Shown in pieces: positions 10,423 to 17,929 of a stretch of DNA of 17,929 nucleotides. A program made the translations under genes and the position numbers. The notes below the pieces were generated by a model. It was not told the DNA's origin. It was given only the letters and a program-made list of their open reading frames with translations, and ran no database searches. The DNA lies in the IMG/VR virus record IMGVR_UViG_2548876946_000015, positions 1 to 17,929 of that record; one strand, given 5' to 3'. Position 1 is the first letter of the stretch. The number at the start of each line of letters is the position of its first letter. The stretch comes from a virus (Duplodnaviria > Heunggongvirae > Uroviricota > Caudoviricetes).

Positions 10423-10455
10423 GCAAGCATACATCACAACAAAGGTGCTTGCATT
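10420..10455. repeat. Operator-like inverted repeat IR2 (AATGCAAGCAT ... TGCTTGCATT)
   Basis: Second copy of the 12-bp TAATGCAAGCAT at 10419-10430 (first copy at 10363-10374) with an inverted partner TGCTTGCAT at 10446-10454, ending 1 nt before the ATG at 10456. Confidence 0.45.
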
Positions 10456-11424
10456 ATGACTGAAAAGAAAAGTGGCGAAGGGAAAGCTAAGGGCGGGATC
10501 GCTCGCGCAAAGTCGCTGACTAAAGAGCAGCGTTCTGAAATAGCAAAGAAAGCAGCTGCTGCAAGATGGAAAAGTAAGATTCTCAGGGCAACTCATCGTG
10601 GTAACTTTTTAGATGATTTTGGCATTGACGCTGAATGTTATGTACTGGATGACGAGTCGAAAACTGTCGTTGTTACGAAAACTGGATTATCTCAGTTGCT
10701 AGGGATTGGTGAACATGCCAGGGATTTAGATCAACTGCTTGGCGCTCAGTATATGAGCAAATACCGAGATCTAGAATTGCAGCGAAAAATGGAAAATCCC
10801 TATAAATTTCAACTTACTTCGAAGTCTAAAACCGTTCATCAAGCGTTAGGTTATGACATTACAGCAATTGTTGATATTGGTAGGGCACTAATAGAAGCCA
10901 AAGATAATGACGATCTACCACAATCACGGTTAAAGGCAGCCGCCGCAGCACAGAGACTTATTAATGCCTCCGCTAAGGCGGGAATTAAGGGGGTTGCGTA
11001 TGCGCTTGCTGGTTATCGTCCAGAAGTTCAGGCTGTCATTGACGAGTTCAAAGCGTTTGTTCGTGAAGAGGCTCGTCAATATGAAAAGGAATTTCCAGAT
11101 GAGCTATACGAGGAGTGGTATCGACTGTACGGCCTGAATAGGCCAGAGAAAGGACGGCCTATTCGTTTTGGGCAGCTAACCAACATGCAGATATATACCC
11201 CGCTAGCAAAGAGCAAAGGTAAAATTCTTGAACAGATTCGAGCCAGCCGAGACGAGAACGGAAAACAATCTGATAAGTTGCATCTGTTCCTTTCTGAAAT
11301 TGGTGTCAAGGCTTTGCGTCAGCATATCGGTAAGCTTCTTGGTGTCGCAGCGATGAGTGAGACAAGAGAAGAATACGAAAAAGGAATAGAAAAGGTTTTC
11401 GGAAGAATGAAACCAGAAATCTAA
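10456..11424 (+). CDS. Hypothetical accessory (moron) protein, 322 aa; basic N-terminal segment; function unknown
   Basis: Start preferred at ATG 10456 (MTEKKSGEGKAKGGIARAKSLTKEQRSEIAKKAAAARW...) with AAAGG 8-9 nt upstream; the track's 10393 start lies inside the promoter/operator region. Lys/Ala-rich N-terminus followed by a segment (CYVLDDESKTVVVTKTGLSQLLGIGEHARDLDQLL) loosely reminiscent of KilA-N/Bro-N-type folds. Ends at a strong terminator. Confidence 0.6.
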   Translation: MTEKKSGEGKAKGGIARAKSLTKEQRSEIAKKAAAARWKSKILRATHRGNFLDDFGIDAECYVLDDESKTVVVTKTGLSQLLGIGEHARDLDQLLGAQYMSKYRDLELQRKMENPYKFQLTSKSKTVHQALGYDITAIVDIGRALIEAKDNDDLPQSRLKAAAAAQRLINASAKAGIKGVAYALAGYRPEVQAVIDEFKAFVREEARQYEKEFPDELYEEWYRLYGLNRPEKGRPIRFGQLTNMQIYTPLAKSKGKILEQIRASRDENGKQSDKLHLFLSEIGVKALRQHIGKLLGVAAMSETREEYEKGIEKVFGRMKPEI

Positions 11425-11428
11425 TTAT

Positions 11429-11456
11429 GAAACCCACCTTCAGGTGGGTTTTTTGT
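11429..11456 (+). terminator. Rho-independent terminator after the 322-aa gene
   Basis: AAACCCAC-CTTCAG-GTGGGTTT hairpin followed by TTTTTTG. Confidence 0.7.
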
Positions 11457-11503
11457 ACAAATCCTTCAGCCAGTACATAACTACTGACAGATAACCAACG
11501 CAA

Positions 11504-11530
11504 CGACCCAGCTTCGGCTGGGTTTTTTTA
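11504..11530 (+). terminator. Second tandem Rho-independent terminator
   Basis: ACCCAGC-TTCG-GCTGGGT hairpin (UUCG tetraloop) followed by TTTTTTT. Confidence 0.7.
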
Positions 11531-11535
11531 TGCCC

Positions 11536-11667
11536 AAAATTCACCGTGTCCACGCTTAGGTAATGAGCTTGAAGGAGAGCACTACACAAAAAGTGTAGTG
11601 CAAAAAGCGAACAAAATAACTTCCTAAAAAGTTGTTTTATCACAAAAAAATTCACCGTAGCCATGCT
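11536..11667 (+). promoter_or_regulatory. Tailspike upstream region with a 21-bp direct repeat pair flanking a perfect 9-bp palindrome
   Basis: AAAATTCACCGTGTCCACGCT (11536-11556) and AAAATTCACCGTAGCCATGCT (11647-11667) are 18/21 identical. GCACTACAC-AAAAA-GTGTAGTGC lies at 11579-11601. Confidence 0.4.
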
Positions 11668-11699
11668 GCGGCGATTCCTTGTATCTGGAGCAAATTAAA

Positions 11700-13940
11700 A
11701 TGACAGATTCAATAAATGCCAATGTTGTAGTGAGTATGCCTTCGCAACTCTTCACTATGGCGCGTTCTTTTAAAGCCGTAGCCAATGGTAAAATTTATAT
11801 CGGTAAAATTGACACTGACCCGGTAAATCCTGAAAACCAGATTCAGGTTTATGTGGAGAACGAAGATGGCTCTCACGTTCCTGTTTCTCAACCAATCATC
11901 ATTAACGCTGCTGGCTACCCTGTATATAACGGACAGATTGCTAAGTTCGTTACTGTACAAGGGCATTCTATGGCTGTTTATGATGCGTACGGTGCTCAGC
12001 AGTTCTATTTTTCGAATGTGCTGAAGTATGACCCTGACCAACTCAGGCAAGATCTTGCATCTCAAGGAGGTGTTAATCTGGTAAACGGAGCTATCTCACA
12101 GGAAGATCTTGTTTTGCAGTCGATCACAAAAATTCCAAGTTATGATAATTCTAACGTAGTCCAGGCGTGGCGCGATAGTGTTGCGACCTACGGGTATGTT
12201 TACTTCTCTAATCATTCAAAAAATCAGATGGTGTACACCGTACCGTCTACAGCTGCTAACGCTTCTTTCCTTGCGAACAGTAAAGTAATCATTGATAAAA
12301 ATGTCACCCTGAGATTCGACAGTGATCTGTACTCACTGTTTAAATCGTTGCAGTACGAGGGGGAGGGTACGTTTGAATTTACGCACCTGAACTTTAAAGC
12401 AACCGGTGGAGAAGTGGATTACCTGGCTAAGCAGGCCATCCTCAACCGAAATCCTATTCGCATGAAGCGAGTGGAATGGTCAGATTGTAAAGTTTATTCC
12501 ATAAATGGTGACACGTTCTTCTATGAAGGTGAAGTCACCATATCCTCAGATAGCGCAGCTATCTTCCCCTTAACTACTGACCGTACAACAGGCCTGTTCG
12601 CACCAATAGATATTGGAGAGCATATTTCTGCACATATTCGTATGGAGTCTCAGGCCGCCTCAGAAGTTGGGATTGTTCTGCGATGCTCTGGTGGTTGGAT
12701 GATGTTCTATGGGGCACCAGGTGCTACACAGTGGTCTTATAGACAGAAACCAATTGGTGGTCCAGTAGCAGAAGGAACTCCATTCCCGCTGCCAGGAGGT
12801 TTACTGTCGTACGCCCCGGGCAAAGCAACCGTTGGCGTATCACTGCAAGGTAAAAACTGGGCGCAGATAACGATGAATGGCGTTGGGATACGTTTGCCCT
12901 TTGATACTGCTGATGTAGGGGATGTATACGAAGTTGGGTTTGTTGCACTGACCACGGCATCTGGAGGTTCTGCGCGTGTAACTGGATTATGCAGCTACAC
13001 CTCTGATAATGGCGTGCACGGTAAGCCTCCACTTAATATCCTTATCCACGGTGATAGTACAGCTGAGGATTTCATTTCCGCGTTCAGCTCGTACATTCCG
13101 CAATTAATGGATGGAGCGAACGGCCACCGTTCATATAGCATTGTAAACAAGGCAGTTGCCGGACAGACAATGAGGCAACAGTTAGATCTCCTGAAGGCTC
13201 AGGGGCCGGGTGATGCTTACATCGTTATTATGGTTGCCGGAACTAACGAAGGGCAGGCAAACCAAAACGGCGATTATATGGCGGCACTGATAGATGAGTT
13301 TGTCTTATATTGCAATGGCCTTGGTCGTATCCCTGTTTGGGTTGAGCCGTGGATGTGGTATAGCCAGTCATTTATTGGAGGGGCTGGCCAGCCATCTTCT
13401 AACTACGACGGTGTCGCAGAGTTGCGAGAAGCTGGTAAACGCCAGATGATGAAATATGGCAATAACGTCATTTGTGTAACAACAACTCACCAGCTCCCGG
13501 CCCCATATCCAGAGTATTTCAATACGCAATACGACCCACTTCTGCGTGATGACATTCACCAAAGCCAGTTAGGGTATCGTCTGTATGCGGAAATTATCTG
13601 CTCTGCCATTATCGACTGGTGGTCGCGTGTTGATTACACGCCAAGAGCAGCTGTTCAATGGTGGGCTGGAACAAACGTAACAGTACAGGCACCGTCAAGT
13701 TTAACTGCCAATTCAATTAATATTAAACTGGCAGCCACTTCATTTGCGAATGGTAATACTGTTCTAACGCTGCCAAGGTGGTGTAGACCAACAGTAACAA
13801 AAAATGTCCCTGTACCGTTCACTGCTGATGGAATATCTTACGGTATGGCGATGGCAACAATAAGCGCATCAACCGGGTCGATAACAATTAATGGATCTAC
13901 TACAGCCTCACCAATATTTTACATTGATGCTTCCTGGTAG
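11700..13940 (+). CDS. Tailspike protein: P22-type N-terminal head-binding domain plus SGNH/GDSL esterase-type domain, 746 aa
   Basis: Start preferred at ATG 11700 ([12 protein letters not shown]...) with GGAG upstream; the track's 11679 start is a TTG. The N-terminal ~110 aa ([39 protein letters not shown]...[15 protein letters not shown]...NVLKYDPDQ) closely resemble the P22 tailspike head-binding domain as recalled. The C-terminal half has SGNH blocks: GDS at 13050-13058 ([14 protein letters not shown]), a Gly block (AVAGQT), GTNE ([11 protein letters not shown]) and DxxH at 13548-13559 ([10 protein letters not shown]). Confidence 0.85.
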
Positions 13941-13967
13941 AAAAAGGCCGCAATGCGGCCATCTTTT
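13941..13967. terminator. Bidirectional terminator between the convergent tailspike and SGNH genes
   Basis: AAAAA-GGCCGCA/TGCGGCC hairpin-ATCTTTT; A-tract on one side and T-tract on the other. Confidence 0.55.
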
Positions 13968-14661
13968 ACTTCACATGTTTATTAATCTCTCTCATCCAAA
14001 CGGCATAGCCATTTTTATTTAAATGCACTCCATCATCAAAGTACAATTCAGATTTTTTATCAGATAAAAAATCTGCAGGAACTTCTATTATATTGCAGTT
14101 AACTATGCGACTACATGTTCTATCAATAATAGAGTTAATCATGCTTATTCTTGAATTGACATGGTCTACGTCTTTTCTTGCCCCGCTTATGATTGGCAAA
14201 ACTTTTAATGCATAAATATTATCAACCTTTGATACACTCTTAAGCAGTTTGTCATAATCATCAAATATTTCCTCTTCGGTTTTCGCACCCATCGCATCGT
14301 TAACTCCACCTTCAATTATCGCAGCTTTATATCCAGACGCCCCATAATTTTCTGATAGAGTTAGGATCTGATGTATAGAGTATCCTCCGACCCCCATATT
14401 AACATATTTAAAGTTTAACCCATATGGTGACATTCCTTGTATGAGCGAGTCGCCATAAACCACAATGTCGCCGTCAGCTTGATTAGCATTCATTTTTTTA
14501 AAATCTAGCATCACAGCCTGAAAGTCGTTAACTTTTTTTTGAGATAAATAATTTCTAATTGAACGAACAGACAATACTATAATAACTATTGCAATCAGAA
14601 TAAACAGCATTGCCAAATATTTATTTGCTTGAGACTTTCTATTTGTTTGTTTTGACTTCAT
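13966..14661 (-). CDS. Membrane-anchored SGNH/GDSL-family hydrolase (esterase or acyl-transfer accessory domain), 231 aa
   Basis: ATG at 14661 with AAAGGA 7 nt upstream. One N-terminal TM helix (YLAMLFILIAIVIIVLSV). SGNH blocks I (VVYGDSLIQG), II (NMGVGGYS), III (EGGVNDA) and V (DDGVHLNKNGY). Very AT-rich. Confidence 0.8.
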   Translation of the reverse strand: MKSKQTNRKSQANKYLAMLFILIAIVIIVLSVRSIRNYLSQKKVNDFQAVMLDFKKMNANQADGDIVVYGDSLIQGMSPYGLNFKYVNMGVGGYSIHQILTLSENYGASGYKAAIIEGGVNDAMGAKTEEEIFDDYDKLLKSVSKVDNIYALKVLPIISGARKDVDHVNSRISMINSIIDRTCSRIVNCNIIEVPADFLSDKKSELYFDDGVHLNKNGYAVWMREINKHVK

Positions 14662-14745
14662 TGCATTTTCCTTTTAATAAGGTTTAAGGTTAAAAATATA
14701 TTTACGCTTCAAATCAACGAATTGAGAAAATTATTCAGCCAACCA

Positions 14746-15024
14746 CTAACTAGACTTGCAATCTAATCTTATATATGATCTGAGTAAGAGTGTAAAAATC
14801 CGCTTAATCCTTCTTAAGTAAAAATCGGAAAAAGAAAATTTACCGCTATTTAAATTTTTAAAAATAATACTTGAAATTAAAAGGCTAGATATTATGAAAA
14901 ATAAATCAAACCCATTGAACTCTCCAGAAAATGCGCTTGGGAAAGCGTGAAACATCACAACAGCGACTGCTCTTAAACCATCTATACCAGCTCTATACTT
15001 TATCATTTTTATTGTCCAATTCAT
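14746..15024 (-). pseudogene. Remnant of an acyltransferase-3 (AT3) gene: N-terminal ~90 codons only
   Basis: Translation MIKYRAGIDGLRAVAVVMFHAFP...FNGFDLFFIISSLLISSIIFKNLNSGKFSFSDFYLRRIKRIF matches the conserved N-terminal signature of AT3/OafA/OatA-type acyltransferases (R...H motif, VDxFFxISGxLI, FYxRRxxRI). The ORF stops after 92 codons, 85 bp before the SGNH gene, and is in the same reading frame as the SGNH ORF. Confidence 0.55.
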
Positions 15025-15313
15025 CTACAGTGAAAGAGCAAAGAAAAACAATGCAATATATCTCATGTGACTACTCCTAAAATAAATTTAATGATAATAA
15101 CATCATGAGGATAAATTTAGAAGTGGGAAGATCGGAAATGCTCATTGAGCAGCAGAAAAAATATCACTGACTCTGTATACACATACAGTATTTTTTGTCT
15201 GTTATTGATCATTGGATACTTGAGCCTAGCGTAAAAGTAATATGAATGATACAGTATGCTTATATAATTGATTTTTGCTCTCGGTGTAAGTTCGGATTGT
15301 ATTATATAACCAG

Positions 15314-15339
15314 AAAATATCCCCAGAACTAAGCTGGGG
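15314..15339 (-). terminator. Terminator after the AT3 acyltransferase gene (minus strand)
   Basis: Minus strand reads CCCCAG-CTTAGTT-CTGGGG followed by ATATTTT, immediately after the stop at 15354-15356. Confidence 0.5.
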
Positions 15340-15353
15340 ATTCATGTCATATG

Positions 15354-16394
15354 TCAGCTTGCTAGTGCGATCTTCCTAAGCCTGTGACCTATATTTATAG
15401 ATGGTTTTTCAATTACCTTATAAGAAATAGTTGCTAGTGCGATCGTAGCTAATAGGTATAAAACAAAAATAATAAAATTAAAATCTGTGTCCATGTCTAT
15501 ACTGACAGATACAATCTCTAAAAAGAATGGGTGAATCAAGTATACAGAGTAACTTATCGATCCCAGGAAAACCAATAATCCTACATTCAATTTTACCCGT
15601 GTAGTGAGCAATAGCGTCAATACTATGCCTGTAAGATAGCTAGCAATATAGGAGGAAGCATTTTCCCCATGCCCATAGTCTTTATTGTAGGACATTAAGC
15701 AAATCGGAGCAATCGCCACTAGGAATGTTATTAAAAATACAATGCACATATTTCTTTCTGATCTCGATGCAATCCCAATGCTCACTGAACGCCATAAGCT
15801 ACCAAAGAACATTAATGACATAGCTAGCGGTATTGCCACAGGAACTTTTTTATCAAGAACGAATCTCACGTATGAGAAAGCAAGAGCGGTTGCAATAAGT
15901 CCTATAGAAATTAAAAATAAAGAAACCTTACTCTTTAATAAATTTACTTTGAAAAGAAACGCACAGGAAGCATAGAAGAACAACTCAATTATTAGCGTCC
16001 AATAAACACCAAACATATCTGGAGATCTCAGTAAAGATTGAAGCATGGTAATATTAGACAACAGAGTTCTTATATCAAGTGGTCTATGAGTTACAAACAA
16101 AAAAGTAAAGGCCGCCAGAAATACTGAAAACCAGTAAGCGGGATATAGTCTAAAAAACCTTGATATAATGAACCCGGATATCGCTCTTTTCCCTTCCTTT
16201 AGGCTGTAAGGTATTACCATGCCACTTAACACAAAGAAGCAAACAACACCAACCTGACCAAAGTTAACATGCTTAAATAAAAAACTGTTATGCAATGGTG
16301 TTCGCTCTATGAAATGTGCACATGCAACCATCAGGGCTGCAAGTCCACGCAAAGAGTCTAGGAATTCTAGACGATTTCCATTTCTTATAGACAT
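15354..16394 (-). CDS. Acyltransferase family 3 (AT3) integral membrane O-acyltransferase, 346 aa; candidate O-antigen acetyltransferase for lysogenic conversion
   Basis: ATG at 16394. N-terminal LDSLRGLAALMVACAHF (R...H catalytic signature), FGQVGVVCFFVLSGMVI and about ten hydrophobic helices. AT-rich. Located between tailspike and integrase, where the Sf6 oac-type gene lies. Confidence 0.8.
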   Translation of the reverse strand: MSIRNGNRLEFLDSLRGLAALMVACAHFIERTPLHNSFLFKHVNFGQVGVVCFFVLSGMVIPYSLKEGKRAISGFIISRFFRLYPAYWFSVFLAAFTFLFVTHRPLDIRTLLSNITMLQSLLRSPDMFGVYWTLIIELFFYASCAFLFKVNLLKSKVSLFLISIGLIATALAFSYVRFVLDKKVPVAIPLAMSLMFFGSLWRSVSIGIASRSERNMCIVFLITFLVAIAPICLMSYNKDYGHGENASSYIASYLTGIVLTLLLTTRVKLNVGLLVFLGSISYSVYLIHPFFLEIVSVSIDMDTDFNFIIFVLYLLATIALATISYKVIEKPSINIGHRLRKIALAS

Positions 16395-16710
16395 TAAAGA
16401 TACCTAAGTTAAGTGTAGTAATAGGATTAATTTTAACAGCATGATTCTGTTGATCAATGGATAAGCAGCGTGTTTTGAAGTTGATCTGATTTTTACTATG
16501 ATTATATTGTGTTCTCGCACAGTATTTTATCGTAAGTGCACCATGGGCTTCTATCTCCAGCAGCAGAACTAGTTGAAGATAGTGTGTCAATCGACAAGAG
16601 CCTTATTGCTCCAATCTCAGTCACGTACATGATGATATCCGTCAGGTCATTATCAACGAAGAGTGTTATGGTTAGTTTGATTATTGTGCGGTGATGTGAG
16701 AAAAACTTAG

Positions 16711-16740
16711 AAAAACAAAGTCTTGCACTGGATTGCAAGG
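16711..16740 (-). terminator. Terminator downstream of the integrase gene (minus strand)
   Basis: Minus strand reads CCTTGCA-ATCCAG-TGCAAG followed by ACTTTGTTTTT, about 30 nt after the integrase stop. Confidence 0.45.
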
Positions 16741-16771
16741 CTTTGCGCTATTCGATTGTGGTTGAGGCTGA

Positions 16772-17929
16772 TCACTTCACCTTTTCATCAAGCCAATCCG
16801 CCCACCACTGCATCATTTCTCTGCGCTTATCGAGATACTGAGCGTGGTTGTAAATCCCGCGCACAGATCCGCCGTTGGCATGTGCCAGTTGCACTTCAAT
16901 AGCGTCAGCAGGCCATTCGTGCTCGTTCATAATCGTGCTGAATTCATGCCTGAATCCGTGACCGCTTTCCAGACCTTCATAGCCGATTTGTTTGATCACA
17001 AGCAGTACAGCGTTCTCGCAAATTGGCTTCTTCTTATCGTTGCGCCCGGCAAAAACAAACTCTGACACTGGTTTAGTGATTGAGCTTAGCGTAGTGAGAA
17101 GTTCAATCACCTGGTCTGACATAGGAACCACATGAATTTTGCGTCCCTTCATCACACTGGCGTCGATGGTGATAATCCTGTTTTCAAAATCGACGTTCTT
17201 CCATAGCATGGAACGAAGCTCTTTCGTTCTTAGGGCTGTGTAGCGTAAAACTTTGGTCGCAATGAGCGATACGATACTTCCTGAAAATGTTGCCAGTGCT
17301 TTGTTGAATGCCGGGATCTGGTCTGCAGGAAGAAACGGGAAGTTCTTCTTGCGGTATCCCTTCATGGCGTCAGCAAGGTCAGGTGCCGGGTTATATTTAG
17401 CCCTACCAGTGACAATAGCGTAACGGAAAACCTCGCCGCATCTTCTGCGGGCTTTATTTGCTCGCTCCATTGCACCGCGATCTTCAAATCTGCGGATTAC
17501 TTCCAGTAGTTGCATCGGCTCAATATCCTGAATTTCAAGACCGCCGATGATGGGTAAAATGTCGTCATCAAACATTTTTGCAAGTTCATTTGCATAGCCT
17601 ACTGACCAGACTTGCTTCTTGTGCTCGTACCATTCCTTGTAAATGGCGCTAAAGGAATTGTTGTTAGACGAAGCCTTTTTCGCCTTTACCGGATCGATGC
17701 CAACCGAGATGTCTTTCCTCGCAGTCCATGCCTTATCCCTTGCTTCCTGCAAAGTCATAAGCGGATATTTTCCGATGGTCAGGATTTTCTCCTTACCGTC
17801 AATCTTGTAGCGAAGCTGCCATACCTTTTTCCCTGATACAGGGACATAAAGGTACAGGCCATTACCATCGAGAAGGCGGTATGGTTTTTCTTTCGGCTTT
17901 GCTGCTTCAATCTGCTTAACGGTGAGCAT
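16772..17929 (-). CDS. int: Tyrosine recombinase / phage integrase, 385 aa
   Basis: ATG is the last three bases of the window. N-terminus MLTVKQIEAAKPKEKPYRLLDGNGLYLYV is typical of the P4-type integrase arm-binding domain. C-terminal catalytic signature HGFRHEF ... RGIYNHAQY (HxxR and Tyr). Confidence 0.85.
   Translation of the reverse strand: MLTVKQIEAAKPKEKPYRLLDGNGLYLYVPVSGKKVWQLRYKIDGKEKILTIGKYPLMTLQEARDKAWTARKDISVGIDPVKAKKASSNNNSFSAIYKEWYEHKKQVWSVGYANELAKMFDDDILPIIGGLEIQDIEPMQLLEVIRRFEDRGAMERANKARRRCGEVFRYAIVTGRAKYNPAPDLADAMKGYRKKNFPFLPADQIPAFNKALATFSGSIVSLIATKVLRYTALRTKELRSMLWKNVDFENRIITIDASVMKGRKIHVVPMSDQVIELLTTLSSITKPVSEFVFAGRNDKKKPICENAVLLVIKQIGYEGLESGHGFRHEFSTIMNEHEWPADAIEVQLAHANGGSVRGIYNHAQYLDKRREMMQWWADWLDEKVK

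Follow-up and report, generated by a model that had tools for sequence, protein, structure and literature searches.

A P63C-family accessory gene of a P22-like Escherichia coli prophage combines a predicted DNA-binding domain remotely related to that of BstA with a conserved, promoter-embedded repeat array

The stretch of DNA analysed here, referred to as the window, comprises positions 1 to 17,929 (17,929 nucleotides, nt) of the IMG/VR virus record IMGVR_UViG_2548876946_000015 (Caudoviricetes) and represents the late end of a P22-like (Lederbergvirus-type) Escherichia coli prophage located at the tRNA-Arg/yfdC site. It contains an open reading frame (ORF) for a 322-residue protein, whose RefSeq counterpart is annotated as 'P63C domain-containing protein', and this ORF is preceded by a 160-bp divergent intergenic region in which four copies of the 10-bp near-palindrome ATGCWWGCAT are found (10365-10454; coordinates of all features are given in Table 1). 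The P63C family is named after the C-terminus of p63 from Myxococcus phage Mx8 and was reportedly first defined in a survey of DNA-virus transcription regulators. Pfam PF10546 scored 52.7 bits against the protein (gathering cutoff 26.1, E 6.8e-14, profile positions 3-92 of 93), and PHROG 2384 (phrog_2384), a group of unknown function, matched it end to end (E 1.7e-104, residues 6-321 against positions 4-328 of 338). PF10546 was also matched by 73 out of 73 diverse relatives, while no second family was consistent across them in the Pfam scan, so that the P63C assignment, which a preliminary description of this stretch had offered as a vague association, is confirmed. The gene is far beyond chance: a word-indexed search returned 1682 homologues with E <= 1e-3 and an exhaustive search returned 1363 cluster representatives at 50% identity with the same threshold. 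This allele or a close relative of it is present in 73 of 5,426 complete E. coli genomes. No match to NCBIfam or PADLOC was obtained, solved structures searched by sequence with two P63C-family profiles gave nothing meaningful, and literature searches for P63C, PF10546, and the ATGCWWGCAT motif found no functional work. Judged by these comparisons, the protein is an ordinary, already annotated, full-length typical member of a known family without assigned function, and no difference from other members was found. What is new is the link of its central domain to BstA, the prophage-encoded abortive-infection protein of Salmonella phage BTP1 whose phenotype includes a block of phage DNA replication (Owen et al. 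2021, PMC8585504), together with the deeply conserved motif embedded in the promoter; the two findings make the P63C family directly testable.

The N-terminus carries a basic helical module (amino acids (aa) 9-39) that no Pfam or NCBIfam model matches. Its strongly basic character, already pointed out in the preliminary description, is borne out by 14 Lys/Arg versus 4 Glu residues in aa 1-45, and seven residues of the module (G13, G14, A16, R17, A30, R37, and W38) do not vary among 55 homologues. The helical prediction for the same segment stands with less certainty, as AlphaFold places helices at 11-20 and 23-39 with low confidence (predicted local distance difference test, pLDDT, 56-68). In the full-length model (mean pLDDT 76.6), aa 9-39 are helical at this low confidence, aa 40-170 form a confident alpha/beta region (pLDDT 86-94), and the C-terminal region is all-helical (pLDDT 55-86), in agreement with the mostly helical C-terminal domain proposed earlier. 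The central domain (aa 41-190), with its beta-hairpin and helix-turn-helix core, has a model pLDDT of 96. Within it, the segment CYVLDDESKTVVVTKTGLSQLLG, for which a strand-strand-helix pattern had been anticipated, is modelled with pLDDT above 90 as strands 60-64 and 71-74 followed by helices 75-81 and 88-96. The fold neighbours of the central-domain model (Dachshund, 4.9; Ski, 4.4; RacA, 4.2; SoxR and other MerR-family proteins, approximately 4; excisionases, approximately 3) are winged-helix-like. No catalytic signature was recognisable in the C-terminal P63C domain. Most distant family members carry a nearly invariant (L/I)(V/I)DEATGYQ sequence where the central domain meets the P63C domain; in the enterobacterial clade, to which the protein studied here belongs, YALAGY takes this place (aa 181-190, AYALAGYRPE), and both acidic residues are gone. 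If the junction sequence has a catalytic or metal-binding function, that activity would be missing from the enterobacterial proteins.

The four sites in front of the gene, designated O1 to O4, enclose the -35 and -10 elements as well as the ribosome-binding site and the start codon. A -35-like hexamer within O2 and a consensus -10 hexamer, which shares its final two bases with the start of O3, would constitute a predicted sigma-70-type promoter of the form TTGCTT-18-TATAAT. The exact sequence ATGCAAGCA has three copies in the window, all inside 90 bp, and a scan of the remainder of the approximately 46-kb prophage revealed no site cluster besides that at the P63C promoter. Downstream of the ORF, a terminator-like hairpin was missed by a simple scanner, which found the terminator at 11505-11524. 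With its own predicted promoter and terminator, the P63C gene appears to be a self-contained transcription unit.

Table 1. Features of the P63C locus and of its surroundings (window positions; for the small module proteins, positions within the respective distant loci).
Feature	Position	Strand	Remark
ORF, 322 aa, P63C-family protein	10456..11424	+	Sequence identical to RefSeq WP_000136767.1
Basic helical N-terminal module, aa 9-39, GKAKGGIARAKSLTKEQRSEIAKKAAAARWK	10480..10572	+	Conserved across phyla
Central alpha/beta DNA-binding-like domain, aa 41-190, beta-hairpin and helix-turn-helix core	10576..11025	+	Remote homologue of BstA N-terminal domain
P63C domain (PF10546), within all-helical C-terminal region aa 190-320	11050..11313	+	Pfam match aa 199-286
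Site O1, ATGCAAGCAT	10365..10374	.	5' of -35 element
Site O2, ATGCTTGCTT, one mismatch	10389..10398	.	Contains -35-like TTGCTT 10393-10398
-10 hexamer TATAAT, consensus	10417..10422	+	By eye, 18 nt after TTGCTT; predicted promoter
Site O3, ATGCAAGCAT	10421..10430	.	Overlaps -10 and expected transcription start
Site O4, GTGCTTGCAT	10445..10454	.	Between Shine-Dalgarno AAAGG (10441-10445) and ATG 10456
Intrinsic-terminator-like hairpin AAACCCACC-TTCA-GGTGGGTTT, then T run	11430..11455	+	By eye, 6 nt after stop codon
SieA-like superinfection-exclusion gene, divergent left neighbour	9657..10295	-	phrog_7745, E 2.8e-20; start according to the Prokaryotic Genome Annotation Pipeline (PGAP)
Right cassette boundary: P22 ant 3'-end remnant, terminator 11505-11524, gene 9 leader	11471..11699	+	93% identity to P22 ant/gene 9 junction
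GDSL esterase	13966-14661	-	O-antigen modification block
92-aa N-terminal fragment of Acyl_transf_3 O-acetylase, probably pseudogene remnant	14746-15024	-	O-antigen modification block
Intact 346-aa acyltransferase	15354-16394	-	O-antigen modification block
75-95-aa proteins with C-terminal basic module	L013:3604-3861, L101:5047-5280, L108:4987-5220, L102:5011-5307 (strand given for these four), approximately 17 more distant loci	-	

BstA contains an N-terminal 'KilA-N(-like)' DNA-binding domain (aa 32-147), its gene adjoins the prophage repressor cI, and the 5' end of bstA is overlapped by aba, an element of 63 bp that carries CCCGCC direct repeats at its ends and is specific to each BstA variant (PMC8585504). 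A BstA-like architecture had been suggested for the 322-residue protein, and its alignment to BstA (sequence from phage BTP1, NC_042346) gave a divided picture. BLASTP found no significant match, and a shallow profile of close P63C homologues reached 14% against BstA, which is not significant. When a diverse P63C-family profile of 73 sequences was compared by hhalign with a BstA family profile of 48 sequences, aa 45-190 of the window protein were colinear with aa 9-152 of BstA at a probability of 90% (E 1.6e-6), versus 0.3% (E 0.2) for the reversed control of either full-length alignment. Comparison of the central domain with the BstA N-terminal domain only yielded 93.3% (E 2.8e-7; reversed control 1.2%). 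The similarity is clear only with the diverse profile, and it shows the central domain to be a remote homologue of the N-terminal domain of BstA. The C-terminal domains, on the other hand, are unrelated (hhalign 0.2%), which leaves the suggested architecture standing for the DNA-binding-type half of the protein and not for the remainder. PF26567, the BstA-like C-terminal domain, is found in all BstA relatives, whereas the cluster annotation of the 322-residue protein contains PF10546 alone; likewise, the PADLOC BstA model PDLC02356 recognised BstA of BTP1 (1.9e-124) and did not match the 322-residue protein at E <= 10.

Several traits nevertheless bring the two systems together. Both are single-gene prophage accessory cassettes for proteins of approximately 300 residues (322 versus 307 aa), in which a DNA-binding-type domain, homologous at the profile level, is followed by a helical domain; in both, the 5' end of the gene is marked by a short stretch of DNA with repeats, which in bstA is aba (PMC8585504), and one P63C homologue adjoins a prophage repressor, as bstA does. 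These likenesses could be taken to mean that the protein belongs in the strict sense to the abortive-infection family of BstA and carries a KilA-N domain, which we consider highly improbable and which, as regards family membership, is refuted by the PADLOC model, PF26567, C-domain, BLASTP, and KilA-N tests. The protein differs from BstA in its C-terminal P63C domain, in place of PF26567, and in an extra basic N-terminal module that is absent from BstA. Moreover, the P63C cis element is a family-wide four-site array of inverted repeats, nearly invariant across phyla, rather than a cognate element that differs between variants and ends in direct repeats, and the window gene occupies a sieA/immI slot in the late region, while bstA is located beside cI.

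The tests for KilA-N, which the preliminary description had proposed for the segment following the basic N-terminus, were negative as well. With E <= 10, the Pfam KilA-N and Bro-N models matched neither the whole protein nor aa 1-45, aa 45-110, or aa 1-199, and KilA-N (PF04383) was not matched at E <= 1 by any of the 73 relatives. In hhalign comparisons with a KilA-N profile built from the N-domain of P1 KilA and 35 PF04383 homologues, the P63C family scored 0.05%, the central domain alone 0.1%, and the BstA profile 0.09%. Structural similarity of the 322-residue protein to solved APSES-type domains was not found either. By any test run, the protein is not a KilA-N protein, and that identity was discarded. 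It shares with the KilA-N (PF04383), Bro-N, and Ant-N phage regulators a predicted N-terminal DNA-binding module of beta-hairpin and helix joined to a variable C-terminal domain. Foldseek searches of the central domain against predicted viral structures gave nothing below E 1e-3, and the weak neighbours were enriched in phage proteins annotated as Bro-N, Ant-N, 'repressor domain', and KilAC; for Bro-N (PF02498), which had no Pfam match, several Bro-N/Ant-N models appeared among them (E 0.03-0.5, template modelling score 0.3-0.4).

The layout O1-O2-promoter-O3-Shine-Dalgarno-O4-ATG is kept in 53 distinct upstream regions from enterobacterial viral contigs (protein identity 61-100%), although their flanks differ. 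A distant set was assembled by scanning one genome per species with a profile built from remote family members, which share 27-35% identity with the window protein; its 80 loci come from Alpha-, Beta-, and Gammaproteobacteria, Actinobacteria, Chloroflexi, Planctomycetes, Verrucomicrobia, Nitrospirae, and others, and the motif was observed upstream of family members in Proteobacteria, Actinobacteria, Chloroflexi, Planctomycetes, and Verrucomicrobia. In 78 species-level loci, GCAAGCA occurred in 49 upstream windows versus 7 in-gene controls and ATGCAAG in 37 versus none, and at least one 10-mer site with no more than one mismatch was present in 46 upstream windows compared with 2 controls. Start-to-start spacings of 20-21 nt (plus, then minus) and 30-31 nt (minus, then plus) recur in these loci, the latter placing TTGCAT of one site as the -35 element and the next site right behind the -10 element. 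In many of them the last site ends within the start codon, for instance aaggaggATGCAAGC[ATG]. Some lineages exhibit variants in which both arms changed, such as ATGCACGCAT/ATGCGTGCAT, ATGCTTGACA/TGTCAAGCAT, and ATACTTGCCGG/CCGGCAAGTAT; a search for helix-turn-helix residues that track the AAGC and ACGC variants of the motif gave no clear pattern.

Some family members possess no basic N-terminal module and start directly at the central domain, which allowed the occurrence of the sites to be compared with that of the module, scored with a module hidden Markov model over 242 loci. A motif site was present in 201 of 222 loci with the module and in none of the 20 without it (Fisher p 3e-18; in-gene controls 4 of 242), and the same held for 51 representatives at 60% identity (29/39 with the module versus 0/12 without it, p 4e-6). 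Sites are also absent from module-less proteins that have an enterobacterial-type central domain (loci L184, L185, L188, and L189). This may mean that the N-terminal module reads the motif or, just as well, that promoter and module disappear jointly as a single 5' block. The same basic module forms the C-terminus of a small protein of 75-95 aa, for example MPTGPKGEKRPADVIGNAVRVMRIATG...GGAARAKAMTAERRAEIAKAAAEKRWKKD, which has no Pfam or NCBIfam match and whose gene lies convergent and directly downstream of the P63C gene in approximately 21 of the 80 distant loci. Its copies in viral contigs are mostly stand-alone, with a P63C gene adjacent in 6-7 of 80 loci. No motif was found near the stand-alone proteins unless a P63C gene was present; therefore the module alone does not predict the motif, and the notion that the module always brings the motif was rejected. 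The arrangement is reminiscent of HrcA-CIRCE and the LexA boxes, autoregulated repressor/operator cassettes in which the operator travels with the gene: the near-palindromic sites of the P63C gene likewise cover the -35 element, the -10/+1 region, and the translation start, and have been retained along with the protein in different phyla. The P63C sites differ in being candidate operators, for which no regulon beyond their own promoter was found in the prophage.

Whether the repeats act as double-stranded DNA deserves separate consideration, since the 121-nt repeat region folded as a single strand forms one long hairpin (-46.4 kcal/mol, z -5.9). Alternatively, they could act as RNA or single-stranded DNA, in that pairing of O3 with O4 and of O1 with O2, or of O1 with O4 and of O2 with O3, would mask the start codon and regulate translation, with the N-terminal module possibly binding its own mRNA. 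In many loci the last site sits precisely in the interval from the Shine-Dalgarno sequence to the ATG, hence within the mRNA, which fits this alternative, and so do the lineages in which both arms change together, such as ATGCACGCAT/ATGCGTGCAT; a DNA-binding homodimer, however, would lead one to expect such a concerted change just as much, and single-arm substitutions in the enterobacterial set are uncompensated. Across 94 unique clusters pooled, the sense strand folds better than the antisense strand (62 versus 31), but this asymmetry vanishes in 30 independent species-level loci (15 versus 15, p 0.98), so the pooled asymmetry is a lineage effect. Furthermore, the -10 hexamer overlaps O3, and transcripts from the gene's own promoter should consequently be devoid of the 5' arm. 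Rfam assigned no family to the repeat region and returned only sub-threshold, miRNA-like hairpin noise. Taken together, the lack of asymmetry in the 30 loci, the uncompensated arms, the predicted start inside O3, and the lack of an Rfam match make double-stranded operator sites the better reading of the sequence, and we regard an action through RNA as unlikely, although the site at the start codon may have a role in the RNA.

The gene order of the window leads from head-completion genes of the gp4/gp10/gp26 type, the ejection proteins gp7, gp20, and gp16, and the SieA-like gene on the minus strand (PF26849 SIEA in a Salmonella relative) to the P63C gene, the tailspike, a GDSL esterase, an acyltransferase fragment, and an intact acyltransferase (these three on the minus strand), and the integrase IntS. 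The SieA-like ORF can also be read as 257 aa from an ATG at 10430 (9657-10430, minus strand), compared with 212 aa from 10295 in the PGAP version; the shorter one is more plausible, as the longer reading would cross the P63C promoter and site array. P22 itself carries mnt-arc-ant between sieA and gene 9; of these genes, mnt, arc, and most of ant are absent from the window (immI region deleted). Since positions 11471-11699 match the ant 3' end, the terminator, and the gene 9 leader, the P63C cassette occupies the place of mnt, arc, and most of ant. A 74-aa minus-strand ORF at 11440-11664 was considered as Mnt and rejected, as it has no Pfam hit and overlies the P22 ant/terminator remnant.

This location, together with the immI neighbourhood, the weak Bro-N, Ant-N, 'repressor domain', and KilAC neighbours of the central domain, one relative beside a cI-like repressor and an ORF6N gene, and the reported first description of P63C among transcription regulators, could speak for a developmental regulator of the Ant/Rha/Bro/KilA type, that is, an antirepressor or transcription factor acting on the prophage's own lysis-lysogeny circuit or on co-resident prophages rather than on invading phages. 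In phage vB_EcoP-611R6 and in Salmonella and E. coli relatives, however, the P63C gene is flanked by sieA/gp16 on one side and by a complete mnt-arc-ant on the other, and because the two co-exist there, the P63C gene is an insertion in the sieA/immI slot and not a functional replacement of Ant. In addition, the motif cluster is found only at the gene's own promoter in the whole prophage, and a gene carried with the same cis motif by unrelated phage backbones in many phyla would be ill-suited to the circuit of one phage. Three distant homologues illustrate this variety: one lies beside a cI-like S24 repressor and the ORF6N gene in a siphovirus-type prophage, another between the Q antiterminator and the holin of a lambdoid prophage, and a third in a metagenomic phage-like contig. 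No neighbour gene of P63C was conserved across the contexts examined. A developmental regulator is thus conceivable, though doubtful.

The protein is most likely an autoregulated, DNA-binding prophage accessory protein. In the explanation that we favour as a whole, to which we assign a probability of roughly one half, the gene is a self-contained accessory 'moron' whose three-module P63C product represses its own synthesis through the sites and likely protects the lysogen. The protein would bind the double-stranded ATGCWWGCAT sites as a dimer or oligomer and, once bound, repress its own promoter, which would keep its level in the lysogen low and constant, independently of host and flanking phage. 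It would act on DNA via its BstA-like domain, with the P63C domain serving as effector or interaction surface, and the lysogen would be protected against other phages by BstA-like interference or exclusion; the site array might double as a self-recognition or decoy element. The interference role, which draws its support from the domain in common with BstA, from the gene being a single accessory unit, and from adjacent genes like sieA or cI, is the most speculative part of this proposal.

A number of observations weigh against the explanation as a whole. The BstA link is remote and confined to the DNA-binding half, the functional C-terminal domain of BstA being absent, and the protein is matched by no PADLOC defence model; the literature searched contained no binding, expression, or phenotype reports for any P63C protein. 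The promoter was read by eye, while a consensus scanner gave no call. Among the loci with the N-terminal module, 21 of 222 have no recognisable site, some of them with variant inverted repeats, and the stand-alone module proteins are without the motif. The association of module and sites could stem from physical linkage within a 5' cassette rather than from function, and the hairpin potential of the repeats belongs among these points as well.

The favoured explanation can be extended to the family. P63C proteins would then be a widespread, unrecognised single-gene defence or interference family that combines a BstA-like DNA-sensing domain with a different effector, the array being both operator and equivalent of aba; we put this forward tentatively and deem it rather unlikely. 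If true, a replicating prophage could switch off its own P63C protein through the site array. P63C proteins are common in many bacterial phyla (more than 1,300 clusters at 50% identity), and the present analysis gives the family a testable anatomy: a DNA-binding-type domain that also occurs in a protein proven to act by abortive infection, a basic module that can be separated from it, and a 10-bp motif. If the defence reading is true, the BstA-type design would acquire a new effector domain, and a recurrent accessory gene of P22-like, lambdoid, and other prophages would be explained; if autoregulation alone is true, the P63C locus would still stand out as a pair of operator and gene whose conservation on mobile elements is unusually deep.

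Further accessory traits were noticed elsewhere in the prophage. The tailspike (window 11679/11700-13940, plus strand) carries the P22 head-binding domain PF09008 (E 2.5e-65), and its C-terminal part (aa 458-635) has a weak match, below cutoff, to GDSL lipase/esterase, which suggests an esterase-type (deacetylating) receptor-destroying tailspike rather than one of the glycosidase type. An O-antigen modification block of low G+C content (31-40%; window 13966-16394, minus strand) adjoins the integrase. Immediately beside the prophage repressor gene, genes for DUF3024, a hypothetical protein, and a serine/threonine kinase are found together with a small ORF (NZ_CP148579 1441709-1443786), and this block looks like another accessory or defence-type insertion.

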